A stretch of DNA of 63,844 nucleotides, counting the filler, from Basidiobolus ranarum (lineage: Eukaryota), in assembly GCA_040143965.1 (NCBI GenBank). It is 35 parts of 35 records of this genome, joined end to end, with 100 filler letters (N's around TTAATTAATTAA, not from the genome) between each part and the next. Parts side by side here need not be neighbours in the genome. Positions count along the whole stretch, not along the records: positions 56,660 to 58,381 come from JASJQH010004478.1; 34 more parts are not named here. One strand, written 5' to 3'. Numbering within the stretch: position 1 is the first letter of the stretch; each line of letters starts with the position of its first letter. Below are positions 2,701 to 63,800 of this stretch, piece after piece. Position numbers and translations under genes: made by a program. Below the pieces are notes generated by a model, which was not told where the DNA came from, made no database searches, and saw nothing but the letters and a program-made list of their open reading frames with translations.

Positions 2701-3568
2701 CGCACTAAATTGATTTTAGTTTTGCCCACTGAGTCCACTGATTGTATTTTGCCTCAAAGCTTTGCTAACACTGCCAAAAGTCAAGATACCATGGAGTTAC
2801 AACAATTATATGACCAGAATTAAGTGGGTCAAAGTGCATCTTTGGTCAAACTAGTAAGTCCAGACAACTTTGAGGACTTGCTGCTAGATGTTGACCTTGG
2901 TTATTCCAGTACCAATGGTAGTATATCGGAAGTTGAAGAAGAAGACTATAGTTTTGTTAGGGACTCTGTGTTATTGCACACATTAGTCCACTGGTAACAC
3001 TGACTGTAAAGGAAGCCGCTTTGTAGAGAGTTCAATCCAATCTTAGCAACCAGGTACTTATTGATTTTCTTACACTTTTACCACAGTTGATTGGCAACTG
3101 TTGCTTGCCACAGACCTGGTACAAGTGTAAAACTCTTCTCAAATGTGTGACTTTTATTCCTTCAGTAATTAAACTGCCTTCATGTCCAAATGGTTGTTTG
3201 GCTTTCACTGATGTTCTGAAAAACCTGAAGTCATGTACTGTTGGCACACAATTGGCATTCACTGAATCAGGTAAATATAGTTCATATTTGGCTTACATAC
3301 TGTTGATTCCCCATCTTAAAGTTTTGATGAAATCACTCAAATGTAGATCATTGATCCAAGACCAAAGTACTCACTGTAAAGCTAATGGTATTACCAATAT
3401 ACTTGATGGATATCACTATCAGAATCTGAAAATTCAAGATTTCTTTGGGAACATATCTGATCATGCATTTGCATTGGCTCTGGATGGTTTCTTACTAAAC
3501 AAATATACCATTGGAAAAGCTTGCTGGCCAATAATTTTAATCAACTTAAATCTTCCTCCTTCTGAACA
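2700..3568 (+). mobile_element. CACTA/CMC transposase (Transposase_21-like), decayed N-terminal part
   Basis: FALALDGF...CWPIILINLNLPPSE motif and a CPNGC..CTV Cys cluster. Many copies in the window. Confidence 0.85.
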
Positions 3569-4449: not shown

Positions 4450-4975
4450 TGTGCTTTACCTTAAAGTGTTAGGCAACACTGCTAAAAGTCAAAATAATGC
4501 GGAGTTATCACATTTATATGACCAGAATGATGTACATGGAAATGCAACTTTAGTTGGGCCAATATGTCCAGACCACTTCAAGGACATGCTGCAAGATGTT
4601 GAGCTTAGTTATTCCAGTACTAATGGTAGTATATCAGAAGCTGAAGTAGACAAAGGTTTTGTTATAGACTCTTGGTTATTGGCTAGCATTGGTCCACTAA
4701 TAACACTGGCAGTTAAGGAAGCAGCTTTGATTATTGGGGAGTGTAGAGTTCAATTCAATCATGGCAACCAGGTGTTTATTAGTTTTCTTACACTTTTACT
4801 GCAGTTGATTGGCAACTATTGCTTGCCACAGACCTGGTACAAGTGGAAAACACTTGTCAATTGACTGACTTAAAATACTTCTGTAATTGAACTACCTTCA
4901 TGTCCAAATGGTTGTTTGGCTTTCACCTGTGATCTGAAAAACCTGAAGTCATGTACTGTTTGCACATAACTGGAT
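4450..4975 (+). mobile_element. CACTA/CMC transposase fragment
   Basis: Homologous to ~2750-3250 (LIGNYCLPQTWYKWKTLVN). Interrupted by LTR family B. Confidence 0.8.
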
Positions 4976-5501: not shown

Positions 5502-5818
5502 TGTTGGAGGATCTTGACATAATGGGGGTAGACTTTGAGTATTAGAAGCAACTTATGACAGTGTGTTTTAGTTAGTTTATTCTCAAGAGTATATGGTGAC
5601 TTATATAGTAGAAAAGTAAATCAATTGTTTGAGATATTCAGGAGTTTGTGTAATAAGATATAAAAGATAAGTGGGGGTAATAAGATATACTTGTTATATA
5701 GATATAGAGATATTCCTATTTAGAATATAGGGGCTATAGATAAATTGCTTTCTGTTTCTGATATATGTATCATAACTAAAGTTAACTATGATTTTGAATA
5801 AAGATTAATTATCCAACA
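5502..5818 (+). mobile_element. LTR family C (317 bp, TGTTGGA...TCCAACA), inserted in the gag of copia family D
   Basis: Inverted TG..CA termini, AATAAA near the 3' end. Copies at 18013-18223, 48961-49271 and 49372-49631. Confidence 0.85.
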
Positions 5819-6321
5819 GATTGGCATCTTGTACTTCCAGAAATTATAATTTTCTCCATCAAGCTTTTCAACACTTGAGTTAATAAAAGTAGTAGTAGTG
5901 GTTTCTGTCATGCTGTAAAGATTAAAGCATAGGGCTCATAACCTAATGGGAAAATATGGGCTGTTTGGAGGAACTTTAGAAAAGTGGAGTTGTGAATAGC
6001 TTTGTGACATGATTATTTATTGTCCAGAAATAAAGTGTTTATACATTTTGGTGGAAATAGAGAAAAGTAACACTGGGGCTGTGTTCAAAACATCTGTGGG
6101 AGTAAAATAAGCTAACTTTGAGGCAATTTGGATGAGTTTTAAATTTTCAATATAGAATTGCTAATTCTCACATTATTCACATATATATATAATATATGTT
6201 CTGATTTGCAGTTAAGTGATATTTGACTAAGTAATGTTAACTAACTTATATGTGATATATGAAATAGTTAAGTGTATAAAAATAGTGATAACAAATATGA
6301 TAAAGACAATAAACTTCAACA
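5819..6321 (-). mobile_element. Copia family D 5' LTR (5944-6321), PBS (5932-5943) and gag start (ATG at 5911)
   Basis: PBS GGTTATGAGCCC; gag reads MTETTTTTFINSSVE.LDGENYNFWKYKM. Same layout at 19511-20054 and ~36070-36506. Confidence 0.85.
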
Positions 6322-19510: not shown

Positions 19511-20054
19511 TGTTGAAATTCATTGTCTTTATCATATTTTTTATCTCTATCATTATACACCTAACTATTTCATATATCATATATAAGTTAGTTAACATTA
19601 CTTAGTCAAATATCACTTAGCTGAAAATTGGAGCATATATTATATATATATGTGAATAATGTGAGAATTAGCATTTCCATATTGAAAATTTCAAACTTGT
19701 CCAAATTGCCTAAAAAATTAGCTCATTTTACTCCCACAGATGTGCTGAGTACAACCCCAGTGTTAGCTTTCTGTATTTCCACCAAAATGTATAAATTCTT
19801 TATTTCTGGACAATAAATAATTATCTCACAAAGCTGCTCACCACTCCACTTTTCTAAAGTTCCTCCAAACAGCCATATTTTCCCAATAAGTTATGAGCCC
19901 CATGCTCTAACCTTTACATCATGACAGAAACCATTACTACCACTTTTATTAACTCAAGTGTTGAAAAGCTTGATGGAGAAAATAACAATTTCTGGAAGTT
20001 CAAGATGCAAGTCATGCTGGAATACAGAGAGCTTTGGAATGTAGTCTCTGGAGA
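19511..20054 (+). mobile_element. Copia family D 5' LTR (19511-19888), PBS (19889-19900) and gag start (19921)
   Basis: TGTTG...CAATA, then AGTTATGAGCCC, then MTE...EKLDGENNNFWKFKMQVMLEYRELWNVVSG (copia gag N-terminus). Confidence 0.9.
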
Positions 20055-29564: not shown

Positions 29565-30357
29565 ATGGAGCAATGAGCTTTTTATATTGAATATTATTAT
29601 ATAGTTGAAACTCTCAATACTAGTACTCTTGCTTTACTTGTAGCTCTTATTCACCGATACCCAACTCGTATTTTATGACCTTTTTAAATAAACACAATAA
29701 CTATAAAGTGGCTCATTAGTGTGACTATTTTAAATCAACCATGAAAACTCTAAGCAAGCAAAATATCTATTTCGCTTCATAGCTGTAAAAATAAACCAGT
29801 TAAATGGCAAATGATGGAACGTAAGTATACCTGCGTACCCAATCATCTTCTTTTTTTCATTCTATGGAGGAGGCAAGCAGATGAAAATCTAACCAACATA
29901 TCCAAAAATGGCTAGTGTTAAGTGCGGGGTATTGCGCATGTATTACGTGAGCTAAAAAAGACTAGTTACCATATATGTATCTGACAACAAACATTTGGGT
30001 GGTTGATCTATGAGCTATTTTCAAATATCAATAATTTTGACGTGGCCAATGAGACAGACATCACCCACATAACCCACATCTCCTATTCTGATGAAATGAA
30101 TTGTTAAGAATAATTCTTGATTTTTCTTAGATTTGTATTTTTACTTTTCAATGTCCAATAGACTGCGTTCTATGCAGAAACTATTCTACATATAGATCTT
30201 ATGCCCTTAGAGACACCGAAATTAATCTTTCGACGGTAAAGAGGGATGTGCTGTTAGGGAATTTAATATATAATCAATTTAGAGAGTTCGCAGCTGCAAG
30301 TATATAAATCCCCAGAGTATACCTTCCCTCTAACATATCCAATTCTATTAATCAATC

Positions 30358-31028
30358 ATGGTTTATAACAAAAACGCTACACTTACCATCCTTGGTTGCT
30401 TTATGGTGGCAACTGCTATGGTGAACAATGTAGAGGCTGGGCCTATGGTTGCACGCGGTGAAGATAACGCTGTAGTGGCTTTCAACCACAAGAGTCATTC
30501 AATGATGGATGACTGCACAACTCCAGTAACTACTGAAGATTGTGAGACTACTACCACCGAGGAAGATTGTGAAACACCTACCACTGAAGACTGTGAAACA
30601 CCAACAACTGACGATTGCGAAACACCAACAACTGACGATTGCGAAACGCCTACAACTGACGATTGCGAAACGCCTACAACTGACGATTGCGAAACACCTA
30701 CCACTGATGATTGTGAGACGATCACTACCGAGGACTGTGAAACTTTCACTACAGAAGACTGCGAAACACCAACAACTGAAGACTGCGAAACACCTACCAC
30801 TGAAGACTGTGAGACACCTACTACTGATGATTGTGAAACTCCTACTGATGATGACTGCGAGACTCCTACCGACGATTGTGAATCTGAAGACCACAAAGAT
30901 GATGAAGATGATGGCGAATCTACTGCTGATGATAAGCCTGACGAATCTTCCGATAACGGCAATGAAGAGCCAACCGATGATACCACCTCTGAAGACCCAG
31001 CTGATGCTACTGCTTCAGAGGATCCCAA
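30358..31028 (+). CDS. Secreted acidic Cys/Thr repeat protein, (TTxDCETP)n, 3' truncated
   Basis: Signal-like N-terminus, TATATAAA at 30301, 16 DC units, then an acidic SEDPADAT linker. Confidence 0.88.
30505..30882 (+). repeat. 24-bp coding minisatellite, about 16 units
   Basis: Repeated ACTGA(A/C/T)GA(C/T)TG(C/T)GA(A/G)AC unit with mostly synonymous variation. Confidence 0.95.
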
Positions 31029-31128
31029 NNNNNNNNNNNNNNNNNNNNNNNNNNNNNNNNNNNNNNNNNNNNTTAATTAATTAANNNNNNNNNNNNNNNN
31101 NNNNNNNNNNNNNNNNNNNNNNNNNNNN

Positions 31129-32955: not shown

Positions 32956-33127
32956 TGGAAGCATCCGAGAGGGCAAGCTTACGACCAATACCGTTAGCGG
33001 CTCCAGTAATGAGAATAGCTTTATATGTACCAGAGTTTGCCTCACCATTGAGCATAATGGACTTTTTCTGGAATACGTGGCTCACTAAGCTAAAACCGAA
33101 GTAAAACAAACTTACAGGCAGGACCAA
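32956..33127 (-). pseudogene. Truncated tandem paralog of the adjacent SDR
   Basis: VLPVSLFYFGFSLVSH..GTYKAILITGAANGIGRKLAL matches ~34250-34425 but lacks the ATG and N-terminus. Confidence 0.75.
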
Positions 33128-33519
33128 AGTGATTAGACTAACGCTTCAAATGTATGTGAATCTGTCACATCGAGTGTTTTAGCTTATTCCATCCTAATGT
33201 TCGCTATAACACTATAAACTTTATATTCGTAGTCTACACACACTTCAGGATTGCCCAATTTTCCATATTCAGGTAGTATCGAAATGTAACTCTATCTGAC
33301 ATCAATCGGAACCGGTATTCGAAATATTCCGACGATTACATTAACTATCGTACTATACACTGATATTCTTCAGCCAGCAGCTTGTGGTCGAAATCCATAA
33401 ATCTCATGGTAATGATGGCTTTGAATACCCGTTACTCCAGTCTTTCTACTCCAGCATGTATACAGCATCAATAGCTCGTTACTTACAACATAGTCAAATT
33501 TATTTAATGGAAAGTTACA

Positions 33520-34494
33520 TCAACTCTCGGGTAAAAATCTCTGTATGCGGTTCATAATAAATGGTGGTGTGCAATGGAGCAACCAACAAAGGGCATGAAC
33601 TGCGAACGGGAAGGCAATCGTTTCGTCTTTGCGAGCAATTCCTTCCACAATAGATTTGGCTGCTTGAGTAGTGGTCATCAGCAAAGGAAGCTTCCTACCC
33701 TTCCTAAGCTGAAAAGTGCTTTGGGTTAAAGTAGTGTCAATAAACCCTGGACACACACAAGTCGTATAGATATTTTCCTTTTTGAGTTGAGATCCCAAGT
33801 CACGAACAAAGCGGAATATCGCCGCTTTAGAAGCACTGTAGCTTGCCAACACTGGTGGACCATAGAGAGCGGAGAGAGAGCTTGTCACCACCACGTGTCC
33901 ACTCTTACGAGTTTTGAACAGGGATATAGCAGGCGCAATGGTATTTATTACTCCTGTATAGTTCACCTCCATAGTCTTTCTCACGTCATCAGCCCACTCT
34001 GAGTAATCTGTCAACTTAGCTGTACCATCACGAGGTGTTATATAGACACCAGCATTGGCAATCACAAGATCCAATCCATGTTTGTCAAAGTCTTTGACAA
34101 GCTGGCTCATCTCTTCAGAATTAGTGACATCAGCGGTGTAAGTCTCCACCTGTACTTTAGGAAAAAGTTCACTTATCTCTTGAGCAGTCTTCTCGAGCAC
34201 TTTCCCACTAACGTCAACAAGCCCTAAACAAGTAGTAGTATCCAGTGAAGCATACGAGAGGGCAAGCTCACGACCAATACCGTTAGCGGCTCCAGTAATG
34301 AGAATAGATTTATATGTACCAGCGTTTGCCTCCCCATTAAGCAAAATGGGTTTTTTCTGGAATAGGTGGCTCCTTAGGTGGCTTACTAACCCAAAGCCGA
34401 AGTAAACTAAGCTTGCGGGTAGGACGAAAAGTGCTAGCCATATTATGGCCAGCAGTGTTATCAAAGGGGTGAGTAAAATACTATCGTCAACCAT
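33520..34494 (-). CDS. Short-chain dehydrogenase/reductase with N-terminal membrane anchor, intronless, 324 aa
   Basis: TGAANGIG, DLVIANAG, catalytic S...YSASK and CPGFIDT motifs. Confidence 0.95.
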   Translation of the reverse strand: MVDDSILLTPLITLLAIIWLALFVLPASLVYFGFGLVSHLRSHLFQKKPILLNGEANAGTYKSILITGAANGIGRELALSYASLDTTTCLGLVDVSGKVLEKTAQEISELFPKVQVETYTADVTNSEEMSQLVKDFDKHGLDLVIANAGVYITPRDGTAKLTDYSEWADDVRKTMEVNYTGVINTIAPAISLFKTRKSGHVVVTSSLSALYGPPVLASYSASKAAIFRFVRDLGSQLKKENIYTTCVCPGFIDTTLTQSTFQLRKGRKLPLLMTTTQAAKSIVEGIARKDETIAFPFAVHALCWLLHCTPPFIMNRIQRFLPES

Positions 34495-34781
34495 AGTAAG
34501 AGAAAAGAAGCGTGGTAGCTTTTCTTCGGTTTAACGAATGAATTTTAGCTACATTTAAAGATTGAATGGTAGTGAAACCTTACCAATATTTTGTAATCTT
34601 AGCGATACACTCAAAACCCCTATCGGTCAGTTCAGGTAAAGTGACGCGAAGCTTAAATCAAGACGCCTCTCGAGATACAAGNNNNNNNNNNNNNNNNNNN
34701 NNNNNNNNNNNNNNNNNNNNNNNNNTTAATTAATTAANNNNNNNNNNNNNNNNNNNNNNNNNNNNNNNNNNNNNNNNNNNN

Positions 34782-35905: not shown

Positions 35906-36069
35906 ATCTGGCAGATACCCTGCAATATTGAGCAACTCTGTATTGAGTTCTTTGCAGATATCTGCATAGTCAACACCAGACCAAATGTCAAGTTGAATGT
36001 TCTTCTTCTTGCTGAAGTTTATTGTCCTTAACATGTTTGTTCTCTCTTTCTTTAAACACCAGACTATTC

Positions 36070-36506
36070 CATGTATTACATATAAGATAGTTAAGATTAC
36101 TTAATCAAATATCACTTAACTGCAAATCAGAACATATGTTATATATATATATATGTTAATATTATGAGTATTGGCAATTCTATATTGGAAGATTCATACT
36201 TGTTCAAATTGACACCAAGATAGCTCATTTTACTCCCACAGATGTTCAGAACACAACCCCAGTGTTAGTTTACTGTACCTTTATCAAAATATATTAGTGC
36301 TTCATTTCTGGACAATAAAAATTTATCTCACAAAGCTATTCAAAACTCCACTTTTTTAAGGTTCCATCAAACAGCCTATATTTTCCCAATAGGTTATGAG
36401 CCCATGTTATAACCTTTATAGCATGACAGAAAACACTACTACCACTTTCATTAACTCAAGTGTTGAAAAGCTTGATGGAGAAAATCACAATTTCTGGAAG
36501 TTCAAG
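36070..36506 (+). mobile_element. Copia family D LTR, PBS (36392-36403) and gag start
   Basis: Matches ~19570-20005. Confidence 0.85.
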
Positions 36507-36606: not shown

Positions 36607-38331
36607 CTGCAAACATTGGTCCACTCATAACACTTACTGCAAAGGAAGCAGCTTTGATTATTGAGGAGTGGAGAGTTCAACCAAATCTTAGCAACCAGGT
36701 GTTTATTGTTTTTTTTACAATTTTACCACAGTTGATTGGCAACTGTTGCTTGCCACAGACCTGGTACAAGTGGAAAGCACTTGTCAATCATATGACTTAT
36801 AATCCTCAGTGGTTAAACTACCTTCATGTCCAAAGAGTTGTATGGCTTTCAGCAGTGAATTGAAAAACCTGAAGTCATGTACTGTTTGCACTAAATTAGC
36901 AATCACTGAATCACATAAATATGTTCTCATTTGGCTTAAATACCATTGATTCCCCATATTAAAGTTTTGATGAAATCACCCAAATATAGATCTTTGATCC
37001 AGTACCAAAGTACTCACCATAAAGCTGATGGTATTACCAATATACTCAATGGATATCACTACCAGAATCTGAAAATTCAAGGTTTCTCTGAGAACACATA
37101 TGATCATGCATTTACATTGGCTCTGGATGGTTTCTCACTGAACAAATATACTGCTGGAAAGGATTGCTGGCCAATAATTTTAATCAATTTAAATCTTCCT
37201 CCTTCTGAATGATATAAGAGTCATAATATTTTGATACTTTCCATCATATCTGGACCTGAATCACCAGTGCTCTTAGATAGCTTCTTGGAGCCTTTGATTG
37301 TGGAATTTGAATGGTTATCTAATGAGGTTCAGATGGATGAATATCTTTATAAATCTAATATCATTGTATGTATTGATGACACTTCTGCCAGTAGTAAACT
37401 TGGAGGTTTTCATGGGCACAATGCACTATCTTGCTGTAGATTTTGTCAAATCAATGGAGTTTACTCTAGTAGGCATACTCATTACTACTGTCCAAACACA
37501 ACACTAAACTCCATGATTTTACTGTCAAGAGCCCAGTCAGATTCCAACATGATCACAGATATTAATTCATCTAATAGTCAGTCTAACATCAAACTTGGTA
37601 TTAGCCATAAGCCCAAGATTATATTGCCTAAGGGGATCAGCAGGAGCCAGAGCTTGCCATTAGGCACTCTGCACTTACTATTCAACAACTTTGCAGTACT
37701 GCTTCCTAAACTATATAGTGGAAGATTCAATATCAATGGGCCATTTGAAAATAGGATCAAAGTTTGAATCAATTGGGAAGATGCTTAATAATATTATATA
37801 CCATTATATTTTACCAGGACTTCCAACAATGTCCACTCATCTAGGCATTTATTTAAATGTGAAGACTGGAAGTATAGGACTTGTATTCATTCAAGTGGAA
37901 TTTTGAAAAGATTTCTGCATCATAAGTATTGGCAACCTTGGGAGTTGTTTGTGGTTATTGTTAATATATTCTAAGGGCATCCACTCACATTGGCAGCTTT
38001 CAGGCAGATGCAGCAACTGTGCAAAGCTTATGTAATTGCATATGAAATACTTTTTGACAGGTGTACAGAAGATAGACTGAATCTATGCCGGTATTCATTA
38101 CATTCCCTAATACATCTTTCACAGTGCTTAGAGATTGTAGGCCCCTGCTATACATTCTGGGAGTTCCCAATGGAGTGCCCCTGTGGTGAAATGATGCTCC
38201 ATGTGAAATTAGCAGTATTACCATATGCTTATCTGATTTACAATGTATCAGCAAAATCACTGATGGAGGTAATGCAATGGGTTAAGGAGAATCCAGAGTA
38301 GATTAACTTTCCAACAGAGGGCTCTTTTCAA
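36607..38331 (+). mobile_element. CACTA/CMC transposase, best-preserved copy in the window
   Basis: LALDGF..CWPIILINLNLPPSE..IISGPESP.LLDSFLEPL..DDTSASSKLGGFHGHNALSCCRFC..HSLIHL..GPCYTFWEFPMECPCG. Confidence 0.92.
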
Positions 38332-41650: not shown

Positions 41651-41980
41651 CCCTAACAAATATTTGAGGATTGTTATTGTAGGAAAACCATCACAATTTT
41701 AATCCATTTGGGATTGACCGTTTACTTACTGTCATAAAATCGTCGAGTTAGATTTGATTTTAATCAATTTTTTCAGTTTCAGGAGTGAAATTTCAAGATC
41801 TCACAAAATAGTTGCAAATGATTGGCTAAATTCTCAGAGAACTATGGATCAACACATGTGCAAAAAACGTAACTCAAATTTTACACATTTATCACTTGAA
41901 CGCTAATTTGTCACCTTTGAAATCCCTAGTCTCTTTGATATATTCTCCTGAATATTTTTATAGAGTTCTTCATACCCAAG
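41651..41980 (+). mobile_element. CACTA/CMC left end with TIR CCCTAACAAA
   Basis: The terminus is the inverse of TTTGTTAGGG at the transposase 3' end. Confidence 0.8.
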
Positions 41981-47549: not shown

Positions 47550-48961
47550 AATACAGCTTTCATATATAGTAATATCTGAGGGCTTATGATCCATTCCAGT
47601 ACATAGACTATTTTTATATAATTGATTCACATTATTATAGTTTAAATGACCTAAGCACTGATGCCAAGTCATCAAGTTTCCAGATGTAATTGTTGCAAAG
47701 TTATAAACAGTCTCAGTTATCAGTGCATTATCTAGATGATATAGATTCCCAATTCTTGTTCCAGTTGCTACTATCAGGTCCTTTGATTTGTATATGGTTG
47801 CTTTTCCTTGGCTGAATTTGACATCATAATATTTCTTTTCAATGGCTCCAATTGTAAAAGATTTGTTGTAAATGATTGAATATATAAGACATCTTCCAAG
47901 GTTACTGTTACACTTCTGGTTTTATTTATTTGTAAGTCAAGTGTGACCTTTCCCATTCCATATGCAACCAGTTTTTTACTTCCAGCTACAGTGATGTCCA
48001 GAGGTTCTATTTCCTTATAGTCATGCAATATGTTTCTATTGTGACACATATGATTACTTGCACCAGAATCTAGAATCCATACATTGGCAGTGTCATTTCA
48101 TGAATTACAGGTTGCCATAAGTACATAGTGTTCATTTCCTCTTATAGTGGTGTTATAAGCCTCCTTTTTCTTTGAAACCCATTTCTTCTTTGATCTGGAA
48201 TAATGTGCTATAAGTCCCAGTTTTCCACATTTGTAACATTTCACAGTGCTCCTTTGTGCTTGCCTATTTTGAGAATAAAATGCTTGTGTAGTTTTTGTTT
48301 CATCTGCAAGCTGACTTTTGTCTTTTCTTTTAAAATCTTCTTGACATAGATGAGAGATCAGATTATGCTAAGTAAGCTTATCCCCAATTGCTTCCAAAGT
48401 GAGTACAAGGGCTGAATATGTTTCAGGGAGACCATTGACTATGGTAAGAATTATATCCATTTCAGGTACTTCATAATTCATGGATTCCAGCTGTTGGGCA
48501 AGTTTCTTGAAATCATATACACATGTCATAATATCTGAATCCTCAGACATACAAGAGTTTAACAATTTTCTTTGTAGCATCATCAAGTGAGCAAGCCCTT
48601 TTTGCTCATGATGTTCCACTAGGATTTCCCATGCATTCTTGGCAGAGTCAGTATCTCTGACTAGCATAAGTTGTTGTGATCCCAGTCTTAGACATATTTC
48701 CCTAAATGCCAATCTGTCTTTTTCTTTGAAGGTTGCCCTGGCTTCTTTACATGTTAGCTTCTTTGTTTCAGTGTCCAAATCTGTACTTTCTTCTTCAGAA
48801 GTTTCTTCTTCTTCATCTGGTTGAACTACTTCCCAGACATGTTTCCCTTCAAATACAAATTGCATCTTGAATTTCCATTCATGGAAATCTTCCCCATGGA
48901 ATGTTGAAATATTAGTAATCTCCTTTTGGGAAGAAGACTCTAATTCACTTGCTGCTACCAT
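47550..48961 (-). mobile_element. Copia gag, protease and pre-integrase, decayed
   Basis: FHGEDFHEWKFKMQ..WEVV, NGLPETY, zinc knuckle KCYKCGKLG, WILDSGASNHMC and WHQCLGHLN motifs. Confidence 0.92.
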
Positions 48962-49271
48962 GATGGAGGATCTTGACAGAAAGGGGGTAGACTTTGGGTA
49001 TTAGAAGCAACTAATGATAGTATGTTTTAGTTACTTTATTCTTAAGAGTATATAGGGACTTATATAGTAAAAAGTGAATCAATTGTTTGATATCTTCAGA
49101 AGTTTGGGTAATAAGAAATGATAGATAAGTGGGGGTAATAAGACATACTTGTTATATGGCTATAGAGATATTCCTATTTAGAATATAGGGGCTATAGATA
49201 TATTGCTTTCTGTTTCTGATATATGTATCATAACTAAAGTTAACTATGATGTTGAATAAAGATTAATTATC
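48961..49271 (+). mobile_element. LTR family C
   Basis: Matches 5502-5813. Confidence 0.88.
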
Positions 49272-49371: not shown

Positions 49372-51093
49372 TCAGAAACAGAAAGCAACGTATCTATAGC
49401 CCCTATATTCTAAATAGGAATATCTCTATATCTATATAACAAGTATGTCTTATTACCCCCACTTATCTATTATATCTTATTAAACAAACTCCTGAATATC
49501 TCAAACAATTGATTTACTCTTCTACTATATGAGTCACCTTATATACTTAAGAATAAAGTAACTAAAACACACTATCATAAGTTGCTTCTAATACCCAAAG
49601 TCTACTCCCATTATGTCAAGATCCTCCAACAGGAACTGAAGAAAAATGGAGTTTTGAATAGCTTTGTGAGCTAATTATTTATTGTCCATACATGAAGCAT
49701 TTATACATTTTGATGGAAATACAGAAAACTAACACTGGGGTTATGTTCAGTACATCTGTGGGAGTAAAATGAGCTATTTGTGGGGCAATTTTGCCAACTT
49801 TGAAATTTTCAATATGGAATTGCCAATTCTCACATTTTTCACATATATTTATAATATATGTTCAGATTTGCAGTTATGTAATATTTGACTAAGTAATCTT
49901 AACTAGCTTATATGTGTTGTAGGAAATAGGTAGGTGTATAAAGATAGAGGTAACAAATATGATAAAGACAACAAACTTTAACAGTTTCCCATATACACAA
50001 CCCTCACAAATTTTCATTTTTGTTTGGGGGGTTAATTTGAATTCCAGCAATTAGGCAGTGTGTGATCTTTTTGCTCATATAAGCAAAAACAATATGGCCA
50101 AATTTTTTATGCCATAATTAAATGGTTTCTGGATAGATGTAACTTATACTTATACATAACCCTCTTAGATTTTATTAAAGTTTGTATAATTACTTATCCT
50201 TTTCTTTCAAAGCTAAATAGCCTCATGATGAACAGTGATGCAGCATCTTGACTCATCTAAATTGAATATTAGTTCTTTGGTGGCAGATTTGCATACCAAT
50301 GTTAAATTCTTTGCAATATCTGGAACATTTGGTATATCCTTAACAGTATATACTCTCTCCTCAGAAGCAGCAGTTGAATTAACTCATATTGTTCTCATTC
50401 CAATGGCATCCAATATACAGTCATCCTACATGAAAACCCATCTAACTGGGATTTCTTCATTAATCATAAACCAATGTTTTTCATTTGTGAGACTTTGGGT
50501 GGCTCCTGTATTAAAATATCAGATCTGAATATCCTAGTTGGTAGTCATAGACAGAGCAGATATTAACAAGTGCTCTTTTGTTGTAAACTCATTTGCAGAT
50601 CAAATATGTTGTTCTTCTTTTACAATTCTTTTAAAGTAATCAAAATACTTATTTCAAGATCAAATTGTCACTTCTTGACTCTATAGCCATGACTAGGCTC
50701 TGAAACCTATGGGGCAGGCTATTTAGAACTGCAACTAAGATATCATGATCAGTTGGAGGTACTCCAGTGCAATACATTCCATCCTCCCAATTCCCTAACA
50801 AAAATAAAATCAATTTGATCAGGATCAGATCCACCCTCCAAAATAGCAAAACCATCAGAGAACCATCACAATATTGCTGGCCGGCATTCTGCCAGGGATT
50901 TTGATGATGTGGAGATGGTTTCTTGACGGTATCTTAATGGTATTTATACATGTTAAAATATTGATCCCCAAATTTGGCATGTGTTATTCAATATCCAGCA
51001 ATTTTTGCAAAAATATAATTTTTGAATGGCAAATTACTGGGTTTACTGCTGTAGGAATTCAAATTAATATGCATGCCTTTATTTAGATATTTT
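49372..51093 (-). mobile_element. Nest: LTR C (49372-49631), LTR D (~49640-49983), copia gag/protease (~49990-50790), CACTA right end (50793-51093)
   Basis: Blocks match other copies. VAVLNSLPHRFQSLVMAIES gag motif; CCCTAACAAAA at 50793. Confidence 0.85.
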
Positions 51094-51193: not shown

Positions 51194-51377
51194 AGATTTT
51201 AGCCAATCATTTGCAACTATTTTGCGAGATCTTGAAATTTCACTCCTGAAACTGAAAAAATTGATTAAAATCAAATCTAACTTGACGATTTTATGACGGT
51301 AAGTAAACGGTCAATCCCAAATGGACTAAAATTGTGACGGTTTTCCTACGATAACAATCCTCAAATTTCTGTTAGGG
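51194..51377 (-). mobile_element. CACTA/CMC left end, young copy retaining CpG
   Basis: Matches 1999-2182 but has CG where that copy has TG or CA. Confidence 0.82.
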
Positions 51378-52290
51378 GTCCTAGCCTCTGCTCTTTCTAG
51401 CTTATTTCTTAATCAACAGTGCATCTAGTAGCATCTTGGTTTGCTTCCTCAGTATCTGCAACTTTCTTATTGAGATATTGAATTATTTTGCTGAGCTTCA
51501 ATATGTTTCAAGTCAATGGTGTTCTGGTGAGTGATCTGCTTTTATCTGCTCAAGTTATTGTTAGCTGTTGCAGCACTTGATAACACAATATTGCTCTGCT
51601 TAGTTAAATGCTACTTTTTAGCTTGCAGAAAGGCATGTATGACTGGTTGAAGACCTGCTAAATTTCCCAAATACAGAGTTAACCAGAATTTATTCACTGC
51701 CTATCTTTTAGCCTTCTCTGCATCTGTCATATTTAATATACATACACTTGGTTTGCCATTCTGTTTTGAATATGTAATTCTTTGACTGCTTCATTAATAT
51801 AGATTAAGACATATTACTCAATTACTTTTTTTCCTTCTGCCAAACCTAGTCAGAATTCATCAGACCAAGGAAGTAATACAAATGTAGACATTTTATAAGT
51901 CTTTTGACATGAATAAGTAGTAACTAGATGCTCTGTGACCTCTTGTATTTACACACAGGTCTCACTAACAGTAGCAAAAATACCTCTCCTTGCTTCCTAT
52001 TGGTATAGCAGGATGAAGTAGTTGGTCTTGGTCATAATCTTTGGGCAGTTTACACAGTTTGCACTTGGGCTCACTATATATATTTACAACTGTTCCCTAA
52101 TTTACTACATTAGTGTTTTGATATGCTTTACCTTGCTTAGACCTATGCACTGTTTGGTATTGAATATCTGAAGTCCTTTATAAGTTACATTTGTGAAGTT
52201 CACTATTATATTTGTAATATAATTTGAAAAGTTTCAAAATACATATATTCTACATATACTGAATCAAATACCAAGCCCTAAGCAAAGGGT

Positions 52291-56559: not shown

Positions 56560-56659
56560 NNNNNNNNNNNNNNNNNNNNNNNNNNNNNNNNNNNNNNNNN
56601 NNNTTAATTAATTAANNNNNNNNNNNNNNNNNNNNNNNNNNNNNNNNNNNNNNNNNNNN

Positions 56660-57081
56660 TGTGGATGCAAAAACATTGGTAATAGTACTGGTAGACATTC
56701 CTTTAACAGCTAGCTTGGGGCTCATAACCTGATAAAAGTGTTTAGGGGATTTGGAAGTGTTTTGGACAAGATTTGGATTTGTGAATTAGACACTTAAGTT
56801 TTATTGAATTGAATATGTCCTATTTATAGTTTACTATGAAATAGGACTATTGGACGTGCTTAGATCATAACAAACATGCCTGTTAAGCATGGGTGAAAAT
56901 TTGAGGTGATTTGGAGAAGTTTTGAGAAAATAGTGAAAATTGGTAAAAGTGATCTAATTGATATTTCTATATATTAGAGCAATAAACACACATTTGTGAA
57001 TGACAGAGTTGAGTACTACATAATCAGAATATGAATAAAGTAACTACTAAATAATGCGTTGCTATTTACCTAATTTGAACA
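56660..57081 (-). mobile_element. Copia family E 5' LTR (56730-57081), PBS (56718-56729) and gag start
   Basis: GGTTATGAGCCC is followed by ATG TCT ACC AGT ACT on the minus strand. Confidence 0.87.
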
Positions 57082-57116
57082 TGGTTGGCAACTGTTGCTT
57101 GCCACAGACTTGGTAC

Positions 57117-57397
57117 TGTTGAAATTATTTAGGGAGAAATATTTGTCTGGCCAGGATTTGAACCTGGGACCTCCTTCACTCTAGCAAGGTGCTCTAACCA
57201 CCAAGCTACCAGTGCTTGTATGCGATGCCTATATTGCTAGGGAACCTTAACCAGTCTGTCAATGTATGGTACTTTGGTATTTCAGCTATACAAGCAACTG
57301 ATTGGCCGTAGACTTTGTGTTCAGATGCAGTCACCATACTCCATATTTTCTTCTTTGGGAATTACTGCTTGTACCACAAGTCACCAGACTTTCAACA
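57117..57397. mobile_element. 281-bp solo LTR (TGTTGAAA...TTTCAACA) with 5-bp TSD GGTAC
   Basis: TSD at 57112-57116 and 57398-57402. The empty site CCTGGTACAAGTG is seen at 3114-3126, 4833-4845 and 36760-36772. Confidence 0.9.
57143..57215 (-). ncRNA. tRNA-derived sequence inside the LTR (nominal anticodon AGA, short variable loop)
   Basis: GCACTGG TA GCTT GGTGGTTA GAGC A CCTTG CTAGAGT GAAGG AGGTC CCAGG TTCAAAT CCTGG CCAGACA. A and B boxes and the D, anticodon and T arms are present; only 4 of 7 acceptor pairs form. Confidence 0.8.
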
Positions 57398-57786
57398 GGT
57401 ACAAGTGGAAAACACTTGTCAACTCTATAACTTATGATCCTTCAGTAATTAGATCATCTTCATTTACAAATGTTTATTTAGCTTTGACCAATGATCTGAA
57501 AAACCTGAAGTCATGTCCTGTTTGCATGCAATTGGCAATCACTGAATCAGGTAAGTATTGTTCATATTTGGCTTACATACCATTGATTCCCCATCTTAAA
57601 GTTTTGATGAAATCACTCAAATATAGCTCATTGATCCAATACCAAAGTACTCACTGTAAAGCTGACAGAATTACCCATATACTTGATGGATATTCATACA
57701 AGAATCTTAAAAGTTAAAGCATATCTAAGAACATTATGATTATGCTTTTGTATTGGCTCTGGATGGTTTCTTGCTCAACAAATATT

Positions 57787-58381
57787 CCCTGACAAAAATA
57801 AATTTGATTTCATCTGGATTGGATCCACCATCCAAAAGAGCAAAACAATCAGAGAACCATCACAATATTAGTGGCTTGCATTCTGCCAGGGATTTTGATG
57901 GTGTGATGATGGTTTCTTGATGGTGTTCTGATGGTATTCATAAATTTTAAAATAATGATCCTCAAATTTGGCATCTATTATTTAATATCCATCAATATTG
58001 CAAAATATAAATTTCAAATGGCAAATCACTGGGTTTACTGCTGTAAGAAATTGAATCAATATGCAAGCCTTTATTTAGATATTTTAGGCTTTGTATTCCA
58101 GCTGTAATGAGAATCAAAAAATACAAGAATCTCATTGTGTTTAGTCTCTACATATGCACACACTTGACTTTTAGACATAACTCAACAACATCAATATGCT
58201 TTACCAGCAAACTAAAGGTGGAAAAATTGCTAAACTTCTGAAATTTTGAATAGCACTGACACTTGGCAAATAACTGACTCTTGTTACCATTCACATTGAG
58301 AATCAGATCTTGGATTTTGGCAAATTTATGTAAAGAATTTAGCCAATATATCCCCAACTTGCAGTCAACAAATGTCCTGCC
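57787..58381 (-). mobile_element. CACTA/CMC right end inserted in another copy of the same family
   Basis: CCCTGACAAAAATAAA terminus; reverse complement of ~44690-45288. Confidence 0.82.
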
Positions 58382-58481
58382 NNNNNNNNNNNNNNNNNNN
58401 NNNNNNNNNNNNNNNNNNNNNNNNNTTAATTAATTAANNNNNNNNNNNNNNNNNNNNNNNNNNNNNNNNNNNNNNNNNNNN

Positions 58482-63728: not shown

Positions 63729-63800
63729 GCCTACTTAGCGCAGTGGTAGCGCGTCAGTCTCGTAAACTGAAGGTCGCCAGTTCAATCCCGGCAGTAGGCA
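63729..63800 (+). tRNA. tRNA-Thr(CGT): tRNA with CGT anticodon (Thr by anticodon), 72 nt, intronless
   Basis: GCCTACT/AGTAGGC acceptor stem, GCGC/GCGC D stem, TCAGT-CTCGTAA-ACTGA anticodon arm, T arm with one A-C mismatch. Confidence 0.92.

Follow-up and report, generated by a model that had tools for sequence, protein, structure and literature searches.

The locus considered here raises the question of what kind of element interrupts a degenerate transposase gene copy in Basidiobolus ranarum, and whether the tRNA-like sequence inside that element has a part in its transcription. A reading made from the sequence alone had taken the block for a solo long terminal repeat (LTR) that carries a tRNA-derived Pol III cassette. 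We consider below the evidence for the insertion itself, the nature of the tRNA-like segment, the likeness of the block to retrotransposons of this genome and of other fungi, and the alternatives.

The sequence window

The window is the whole stretch of DNA that was analyzed, 63,844 nucleotides with filler, from assembly GCA_040143965.1. It is made of 35 separate contigs, arranged by decreasing length from 1734 to 1721 bp, with spacers of the form N44-TTAATTAATTAA-N44 between them (for example at 1735-1834, 56560-56659 and 58382-58481). Because adjacency across the spacers is artificial, arguments from neighborhood are limited to about 1.7 kb. The piece that bears the LTR lies at 56660-58381 (1722 bp). 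GC content is 36% overall and similar from piece to piece among the 35, and several pieces have transposable element families in common.

Basidiobolus belongs to the Basidiobolomycota (NCBI taxonomy). A single-exon SDR protein encoded on the piece at 32956-34681 is 69% identical to a protein of Basidiobolus meristosporus and 62% identical to one of B. ranarum, and its matches after the Basidiobolus ones are only 33-38% identical. A plant origin is thereby rejected; the piece with the LTR is tied to Basidiobolus by composition and by repeats that it shares with other pieces, and not by a gene of its own. An ORF at 30352-31080 (+) has a signal-peptide-like start followed by a long acidic tandem repeat (..DCETPTT.. 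units), and its product is possibly a secreted or cell-wall repeat protein. An inverted-repeat pair on one contig (34944-35234 and 35621-35911, about 290 bp each, 88% identity, 390 bp apart) has relatives on three other contigs, at 1835-2182, 41651-41980 and 51194-51378, and probably represents a TIR-type DNA transposon or MITE family.

A 281-bp insertion with a 5-bp target site duplication

The insertion and its empty counterparts have the following coordinates.

57117-57397, minus strand if the tRNA-like part acts as a promoter: 281-bp insertion, read as a solo LTR
57112-57116, no strand: left copy of the target site duplication (TSD), GGTAC
57398-57402, no strand: right copy of the TSD, GGTAC
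57117-57124, plus strand: terminal inverted repeat arm TGTTGAAA, read from the sequence
57390-57397, plus strand: terminal inverted repeat arm TTTCAACA, read from the sequence
3118-3122, no strand: empty site on another contig, flank matches 3088-3122 and 3118-3509
4836-4840, no strand: empty site on another contig, flank matches 4806-4840 and 4836-4964
36763-36767, no strand: empty site on another contig, flank matches 36733-36767 and 36763-37149

The block begins with TG, closes with CA and has perfect 8-bp inverted ends, and GGTAC stands on either side of the 281 bp (...CTTGGTAC/TGTTGAAATT...GACTTTCAACA/GGTACAAGTGG..., slashes marking the junctions). Empty sites were sought by BLAST, with 2 kb of each flank searched against the whole window. 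Three paralogous host copies cross the site, and side-by-side comparison showed that the 281 bp are absent and that GGTAC occurs once in all three. Therefore, the insertion and its 5-bp TSD are real. The sequence-only reading had described the same 281-bp insertion, inverted ends and perfect GGTAC duplication, and had counted the empty site three times in the window; both statements hold, the three sites lying on other contigs and not nearby. The left flank matches the empty sites over 35 bp at 91-94% identity, a match this short because another repeat cuts the host copy at about 57082, and the right flank matches them over 129-394 bp at 81-84% identity.

The interrupted sequence belongs to a transposase family with copies on several contigs, among them those listed here.

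57082-58381, plus strand: host of the insertion, a degenerate Transposase_21 (En/Spm-CACTA type) gene copy, from BLAST and alignment to the database protein P0123
2975-3566, 4687-4965, 31133-32526 and 36608-38331: other copies of the Transposase_21 family

P0123 (698 aa) shares 83% identity with a paralogous ORF at 3027-3566 and itself matches Pfam Transposase_21 with 60.3 bits against a cut-off of 28.6. Transposase_21 is the tnp2 family of En/Spm-CACTA elements. The window ORF at 37213-37767, taken alone, scores 23 bits against the same model and so falls below the cut-off; it is through P0123 that the earlier description of the host as a CACTA copy finds support, at the level of the transposase family. 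The LTR interrupts the host at a point that matches about residue 138 of P0123, and an ORF running from the LTR into the right flank aligns with residues 139-243 at 74% identity, leaving 52 LTR-encoded residues unaligned. The family as a whole is abundant and degenerate (about 80-86% identity), on several of the 35 contigs, with P0123 as its closest database protein.

The combination of TG..CA ends and a 5-bp TSD is characteristic of retroviral-type integrases, and fungal Gypsy elements likewise produce 5-bp TSDs. The stretch at 57117-57397 has the TG..CA termini, the short inverted ends and a TSD within the 4-6 bp range by which solo LTRs are recognized. It is without coding capacity and contains no LTR-like internal direct repeats longer than 16 nt; a complete miniature two-LTR element is thus ruled out, and the lack of internal repeat structure indicates that the 281 bp are one unit. 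Taken together, these sequence features are best read as those of a solo LTR.

A tRNA-derived segment with intact A and B boxes

Four features within the LTR bear on its possible promoter.

57144-57214, minus strand: tRNA-derived segment, a pseudo-tRNA (Rfam tRNA; ARAGORN at 90%)
57198-57208, minus strand: A box TAGCTTGGTGG, intact, fits TRGCY...YGG
57154-57164, minus strand: B box GGTTCAAATCC, intact, GGTTC kept
57117-57143, minus strand: 27 nt from the 3' end of the tRNA-like part to the LTR terminus, with no T4 and no A-rich or simple-repeat tail

The Rfam tRNA model RF00005 (gathering cut-off 29 bits) scored 39.4 bits at 57212-57147 (-), over model positions 4-67 of 71, with an E value of 2e-06 when 1.5 kb was searched and of 8.5e-05 for the whole window. 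At default settings ARAGORN made no tRNA call at 57214-57144; with the threshold at 90% (ps90) it called a 71-nt tRNA-Ser(aga) at that position on the minus strand. In its own sense, the tRNA-like part lies 182 nt into the LTR. These results bear out a minus-strand cloverleaf that had been placed at 57215-57143, with its A and B boxes.

In the cloverleaf drawn by ARAGORN, 5/7 acceptor pairs form and the anticodon stem contains a G.G mismatch. The segment retains its D arm and a perfect 5-bp T stem; its acceptor stem is decayed, and its minimum free energy fold is not a cloverleaf (z -1.36). The anticodon is AGA (Ser) and the variable loop is short, whereas real tRNA-Ser does not have a short variable loop. 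The broken acceptor stem and the Ser anticodon without a long variable arm had both been recognized in the sequence-only reading. A functional tRNA gene is ruled out by the acceptor pairs, the G.G pair in the anticodon stem and the missing T4, and the Ser anticodon on a class-I body and the lack of a default ARAGORN call also stand against it. Rfam reports only a tRNA in the LTR, and 5S rRNA-derived sequence is absent from it.

No TTTT occurs on the tRNA-sense strand anywhere in the LTR, in agreement with the earlier statement that no T4 lies between the tRNA and the LTR end; the first one downstream is 267 nt from the tRNA-like start, beyond the LTR. This absence fits read-through but is not significant, because 40% of shuffled LTR sequences also lack TTTT (P 0.40). 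Rfam matches only one further tRNA in the window, at 63729-63800 (+), where a genuine tRNA-Thr(CGT) gene scores 68.5 bits. A T7 terminator follows that gene directly, in contrast to the 267 nt free of T4 behind the start of the pseudo-tRNA in the LTR. Down to an E value of 1, Rfam found no further decayed tRNA-like segments in the window.

The origin of the segment was approached through a 20-nt word from its D arm, which occurred in only 2 records of a metagenome collection. ARAGORN called a tRNA-Thr gene at both.

L001, 845-919: tRNA-Thr(TGT) call on a metagenome contig, with an aberrant T arm and a T run behind
L002, 400-472: tRNA-Thr(CGT) call on a metagenome contig, with a T run behind

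Over 54 nt, the Thr-CGT metagenome gene and the LTR segment share 79.6% identity, and the tRNA-Thr(CGT) gene of the window is more distant from the segment than this. In both metagenome records, similarity to the LTR stays within the tRNA part (those 54 nt in one, 20 nt in the other). Since the D-arm word lies at two tRNA-Thr calls, one of them with the 79.6% match, the tRNA-like part likely descends from a tRNA-Thr, an ancestry that this sequence similarity suggests and does not prove.

Termini shared with a local Copia family

The window also holds a Copia family, of which four copies comprising the 5' LTR and leader were aligned.

5502-6321, minus strand: Copia copy
19511-20054, plus strand: Copia copy (copy B)
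36010-36506, plus strand: Copia copy
49372-49983, minus strand: Copia copy
48368-49000, minus strand: Copia gag, PF14223 (E 1.6e-30)

The Copia LTR is about 400 bp long, starts with TGTTGAAGTTT or TGTTGAAATTC (TGTTGAAG/ATT) and ends in ..TTTTCCCA. The LTR end is followed by AGGTTATGAGCCC, and the start of gag (..KLDGENYNFWKFKM) comes next. We take AGGTTATGAGCCC to be the PBS, as it appears complementary to the anticodon stem-loop of the initiator tRNA (iMet). Half-tRNA primers are used by Drosophila copia and Ty5.

The first 10 nt of the 281-bp LTR (TGTTGAAATT) are also those with which the Copia LTR at 19511 (copy B) opens. Either end of the 281-bp LTR, each starting with TGTTGAAA, agrees with the Copia 5' terminus at 10/11 bases. 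The two LTRs are thus alike in their first 8-10 terminal bases but have no similarity elsewhere, and the Copia LTR, unlike the 281-bp one, is without a tRNA-like part. The shared TGTTG ends give mild support, from terminal bases, to the use of a Copia-type integrase. Because the two ends mirror each other over 8 nt and agree equally well with Copia (10/11), the tRNA-like part could also be antisense with respect to the element.

Comparison with Helenus and other systems

That LTR elements bearing small-RNA sequences, Helenus among them, had already been described was part of the sequence-only reading, and passages of the paper by Kojima (2024; PMC10886601) confirm it. There, Helenus/TRIMp3 elements are TRIMs with tRNA-derived sequence in their LTRs, a TRIM consisting of two LTRs, a PBS, a PPT and a short internal part. 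Described Helenus families are 311-1263 bp long, under a screening limit of <1000 bp for TRIMs, and the LTR lengths quoted run from 120 to 323 bp. Rust fungi account for 113 families and Agaricomycetes for a few. In these LTRs box A (TRGCY, YGG) and box B (GGTTC) are conserved and the tRNA is mostly non-functional. Fungal Helenus elements generate TSDs of 5 bp and often occur as solo LTRs flanked by a TSD; their tRNA-like parts were aligned to tRNA-Thr-CGT, and tRNA predictors called them Thr-AGT, Ser-AGA, Ser-TGA, Ala, Pro and others. A primer from the initiator-tRNA anticodon loop dominates among them.

According to those passages (PMC10886601), the LTR examined here shares with Helenus a tRNA-derived part in which box A (TRGCY..YGG) and box B (GGTTC) are kept, the lack of a usable encoded tRNA, a 5-bp TSD and occurrence as a solo LTR. 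Its 281 bp lie within the quoted range of LTR lengths. Like the rust elements called Thr-AGT or Ser-AGA, it is Thr-like with an AGA anticodon, and the primer type that dominates in fungal Helenus is apparently used by Copia in the present genome. The fungi in Table 1 of that paper are all Basidiomycota, and Basidiobolus, the host here, is absent from that table. To judge from its sequence, the present LTR shows every feature of Helenus that a solo LTR can show; it is known here from one copy. We therefore regard the block, with moderate confidence and on the one copy examined, as a candidate solo LTR of a Helenus-type (TRIMp3) element.

Two other systems share parts of this arrangement. Cassandra elements, which are plant TRIMs, follow the same principle of a small-RNA gene promoter in the LTR of a non-autonomous LTR element, but theirs is derived from 5S rRNA in the plant lineage and the present one from a tRNA. 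The Cassandra LTR has a conserved terminator and an 18-bp R, as given in passages of PMC10886601, whereas the LTR here is without a terminator. The tRNA-derived SINEs (SINE2) have a tRNA head with A and B boxes, a lost terminator and a decayed acceptor stem, as seen here. However, the tRNA-like part of the present unit is not at its 5' end and no tail is found, and SINE2 insertion is LINE-mediated, whereas the TG..CA ends and 5-bp TSD seen here point to an integrase.

Alternative explanations

The insertion may instead be an LTR of the ordinary, Pol II-driven kind, whether its source was an autonomous Copia or Gypsy element, a LARD or a plain TRIM, and the tRNA or SINE fragment in it a passenger with no role in transcription. 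We consider this rather unlikely; it stays a serious rival because, in the screen reported in passages of PMC10886601, "not a few" ordinary, non-TRIM LTRs also hold tRNA-like pieces. By eye, CCAAT and TATA-like motifs are present upstream of the tRNA-like part in the tRNA sense, as an ordinary LTR might have them. The symmetric ends leave either orientation possible for a passenger fragment, and the missing T4 is compatible with chance at the value given above. The pattern of decay, however, with both boxes, the D arm and the perfect T stem surviving beside a decayed acceptor stem, fits selection for a promoter better than it fits a passenger, as far as one sequence can tell.

The tRNA-like part might also have arrived separately, as a tRNA-derived retroposon or tRNA cDNA that inserted into this LTR copy alone or into one of its recent ancestors. 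A SINE insertion into an LTR is the origin that Kojima proposed for Helenus itself, according to passages of the paper (PMC10886601), and the tRNA-like part lies in a 102-bp block flanked by a 6-bp direct repeat, TCCCTA (57243-57238 and 57135-57130). However, a shared 6-mer is expected about 0.3 times by chance between flanks this short, and the flanked block has its start about 22 nt before the tRNA-like 5' end, where a Pol III retrocopy would not be expected to start. The tRNA-like end is also only 27 nt from the LTR terminus, and there is neither an A-rich or simple-repeat tail nor a SINE body. A TSD or tail belonging to the segment itself had been named beforehand as the sign of a SINE in an ordinary LTR; no tail was found, and the chance-level TCCCTA, with its 22-nt offset, is the only candidate duplication. 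We consider such a late arrival improbable.

A small non-autonomous DNA transposon with 8-bp terminal inverted repeats and 5-bp duplications would account for the perfect inverted repeats, the short length and the lack of coding capacity, but it is very improbable given the integrase-type ends and TSD and the match of the termini to a bona fide Copia LTR terminus of the present assembly, and we know of no fungal cut-and-paste superfamily with 5-bp TSDs.

Proposed history and transcription of the element

If the block is the LTR of a Helenus-type element, its history may be sketched as follows. A retroviral-type integrase would have put an LTR retrotransposon into the CACTA-type transposase gene copy, duplicating GGTAC, and the body of the element would have been lost later by recombination between its two LTRs. 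The element was probably short and non-autonomous, with an LTR that had acquired a sequence derived from a tRNA, probably a tRNA-Thr. Although it would no longer make a tRNA, this sequence would have kept its internal A and B boxes.

In an intact element of this kind, the A and B boxes of the 5' LTR may recruit Pol III, with initiation at the tRNA-like head. Meeting no terminator, the polymerase would transcribe the final ~98 nt of the LTR and carry on into the PBS and internal region. For reverse transcription and integration, this RNA would depend on the proteins of an autonomous element, probably of the Copia type. A pairing of this sort, in which the internal ends next to the PBS and PPT match between a short element and a Copia element, has been shown for LTR-1_PTrit and Copia-9_PGr.

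Further copies and previous reports

The 281-bp sequence is a single copy in the window, where its next best BLAST matches are at most 17 nt. Although the assembly is very fragmented, the sequence came out cleanly within a contig of 1.7 kb, and the other 34 contigs contain nothing like it; nothing therefore points to a large, homogeneous, high-copy family. Beyond the window, three words from the LTR gave 0 matches among viral contigs, and scans of prokaryote genomes likewise gave 0 matches, plus a single match, in a Cyclobacteriaceae MAG, that goes no further than 20 nt. A 52-aa frame of the LTR, searched against 1.84 billion representatives, had only 2 matches, both to unrelated repeat proteins (32% and 43%), and a protein search with a 51-aa frame from the opposite strand gave no candidate. 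Because short non-coding frames are rarely called as genes, the blank protein searches say nothing about copy number; the blank scans as a whole (metagenome, viral, prokaryote and protein) reflect the collections searched and not the number of copies.

A literature search, with Table S1 of PMC10886601 outside it, found no report of tRNA-promoted LTR elements in Basidiobolus or in other early-diverging fungi, and the matching passages of literature citing PMC10886601 named no new Helenus hosts. The principle of a small-RNA Pol III promoter in an LTR and the Helenus/TRIMp3 class are already published, fungi included, as passages of the same paper attest.

Significance for Helenus elements in fungi

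At present the locus provides one well-preserved solo LTR of a kind known from fungi. It is possibly the first Helenus case outside the Basidiomycota. Going further, and only tentatively, we suggest that it may be the first trace of a Helenus-type LTR element outside the Dikarya, in the early-diverging Basidiobolus lineage and with a Thr-like AGA head. In the Pucciniales, an age of about 130 My has been proposed for Helenus. If the suggestion is true, it would imply a far older fungal origin than those ~130 My, repeated convergent capture of one and the same type of tRNA, or horizontal transfer.

LTRs of this type also inflate tRNA gene predictions, as the tRNA-Ser(AGA) call obtained here at relaxed thresholds illustrates. 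If the family is confirmed, it would add a further case to the question of why tRNA-Thr-like heads recur in fungal Helenus, and it would extend the tRNA-promoted LTR elements (TRIMp3) to an early-diverging fungal lineage.
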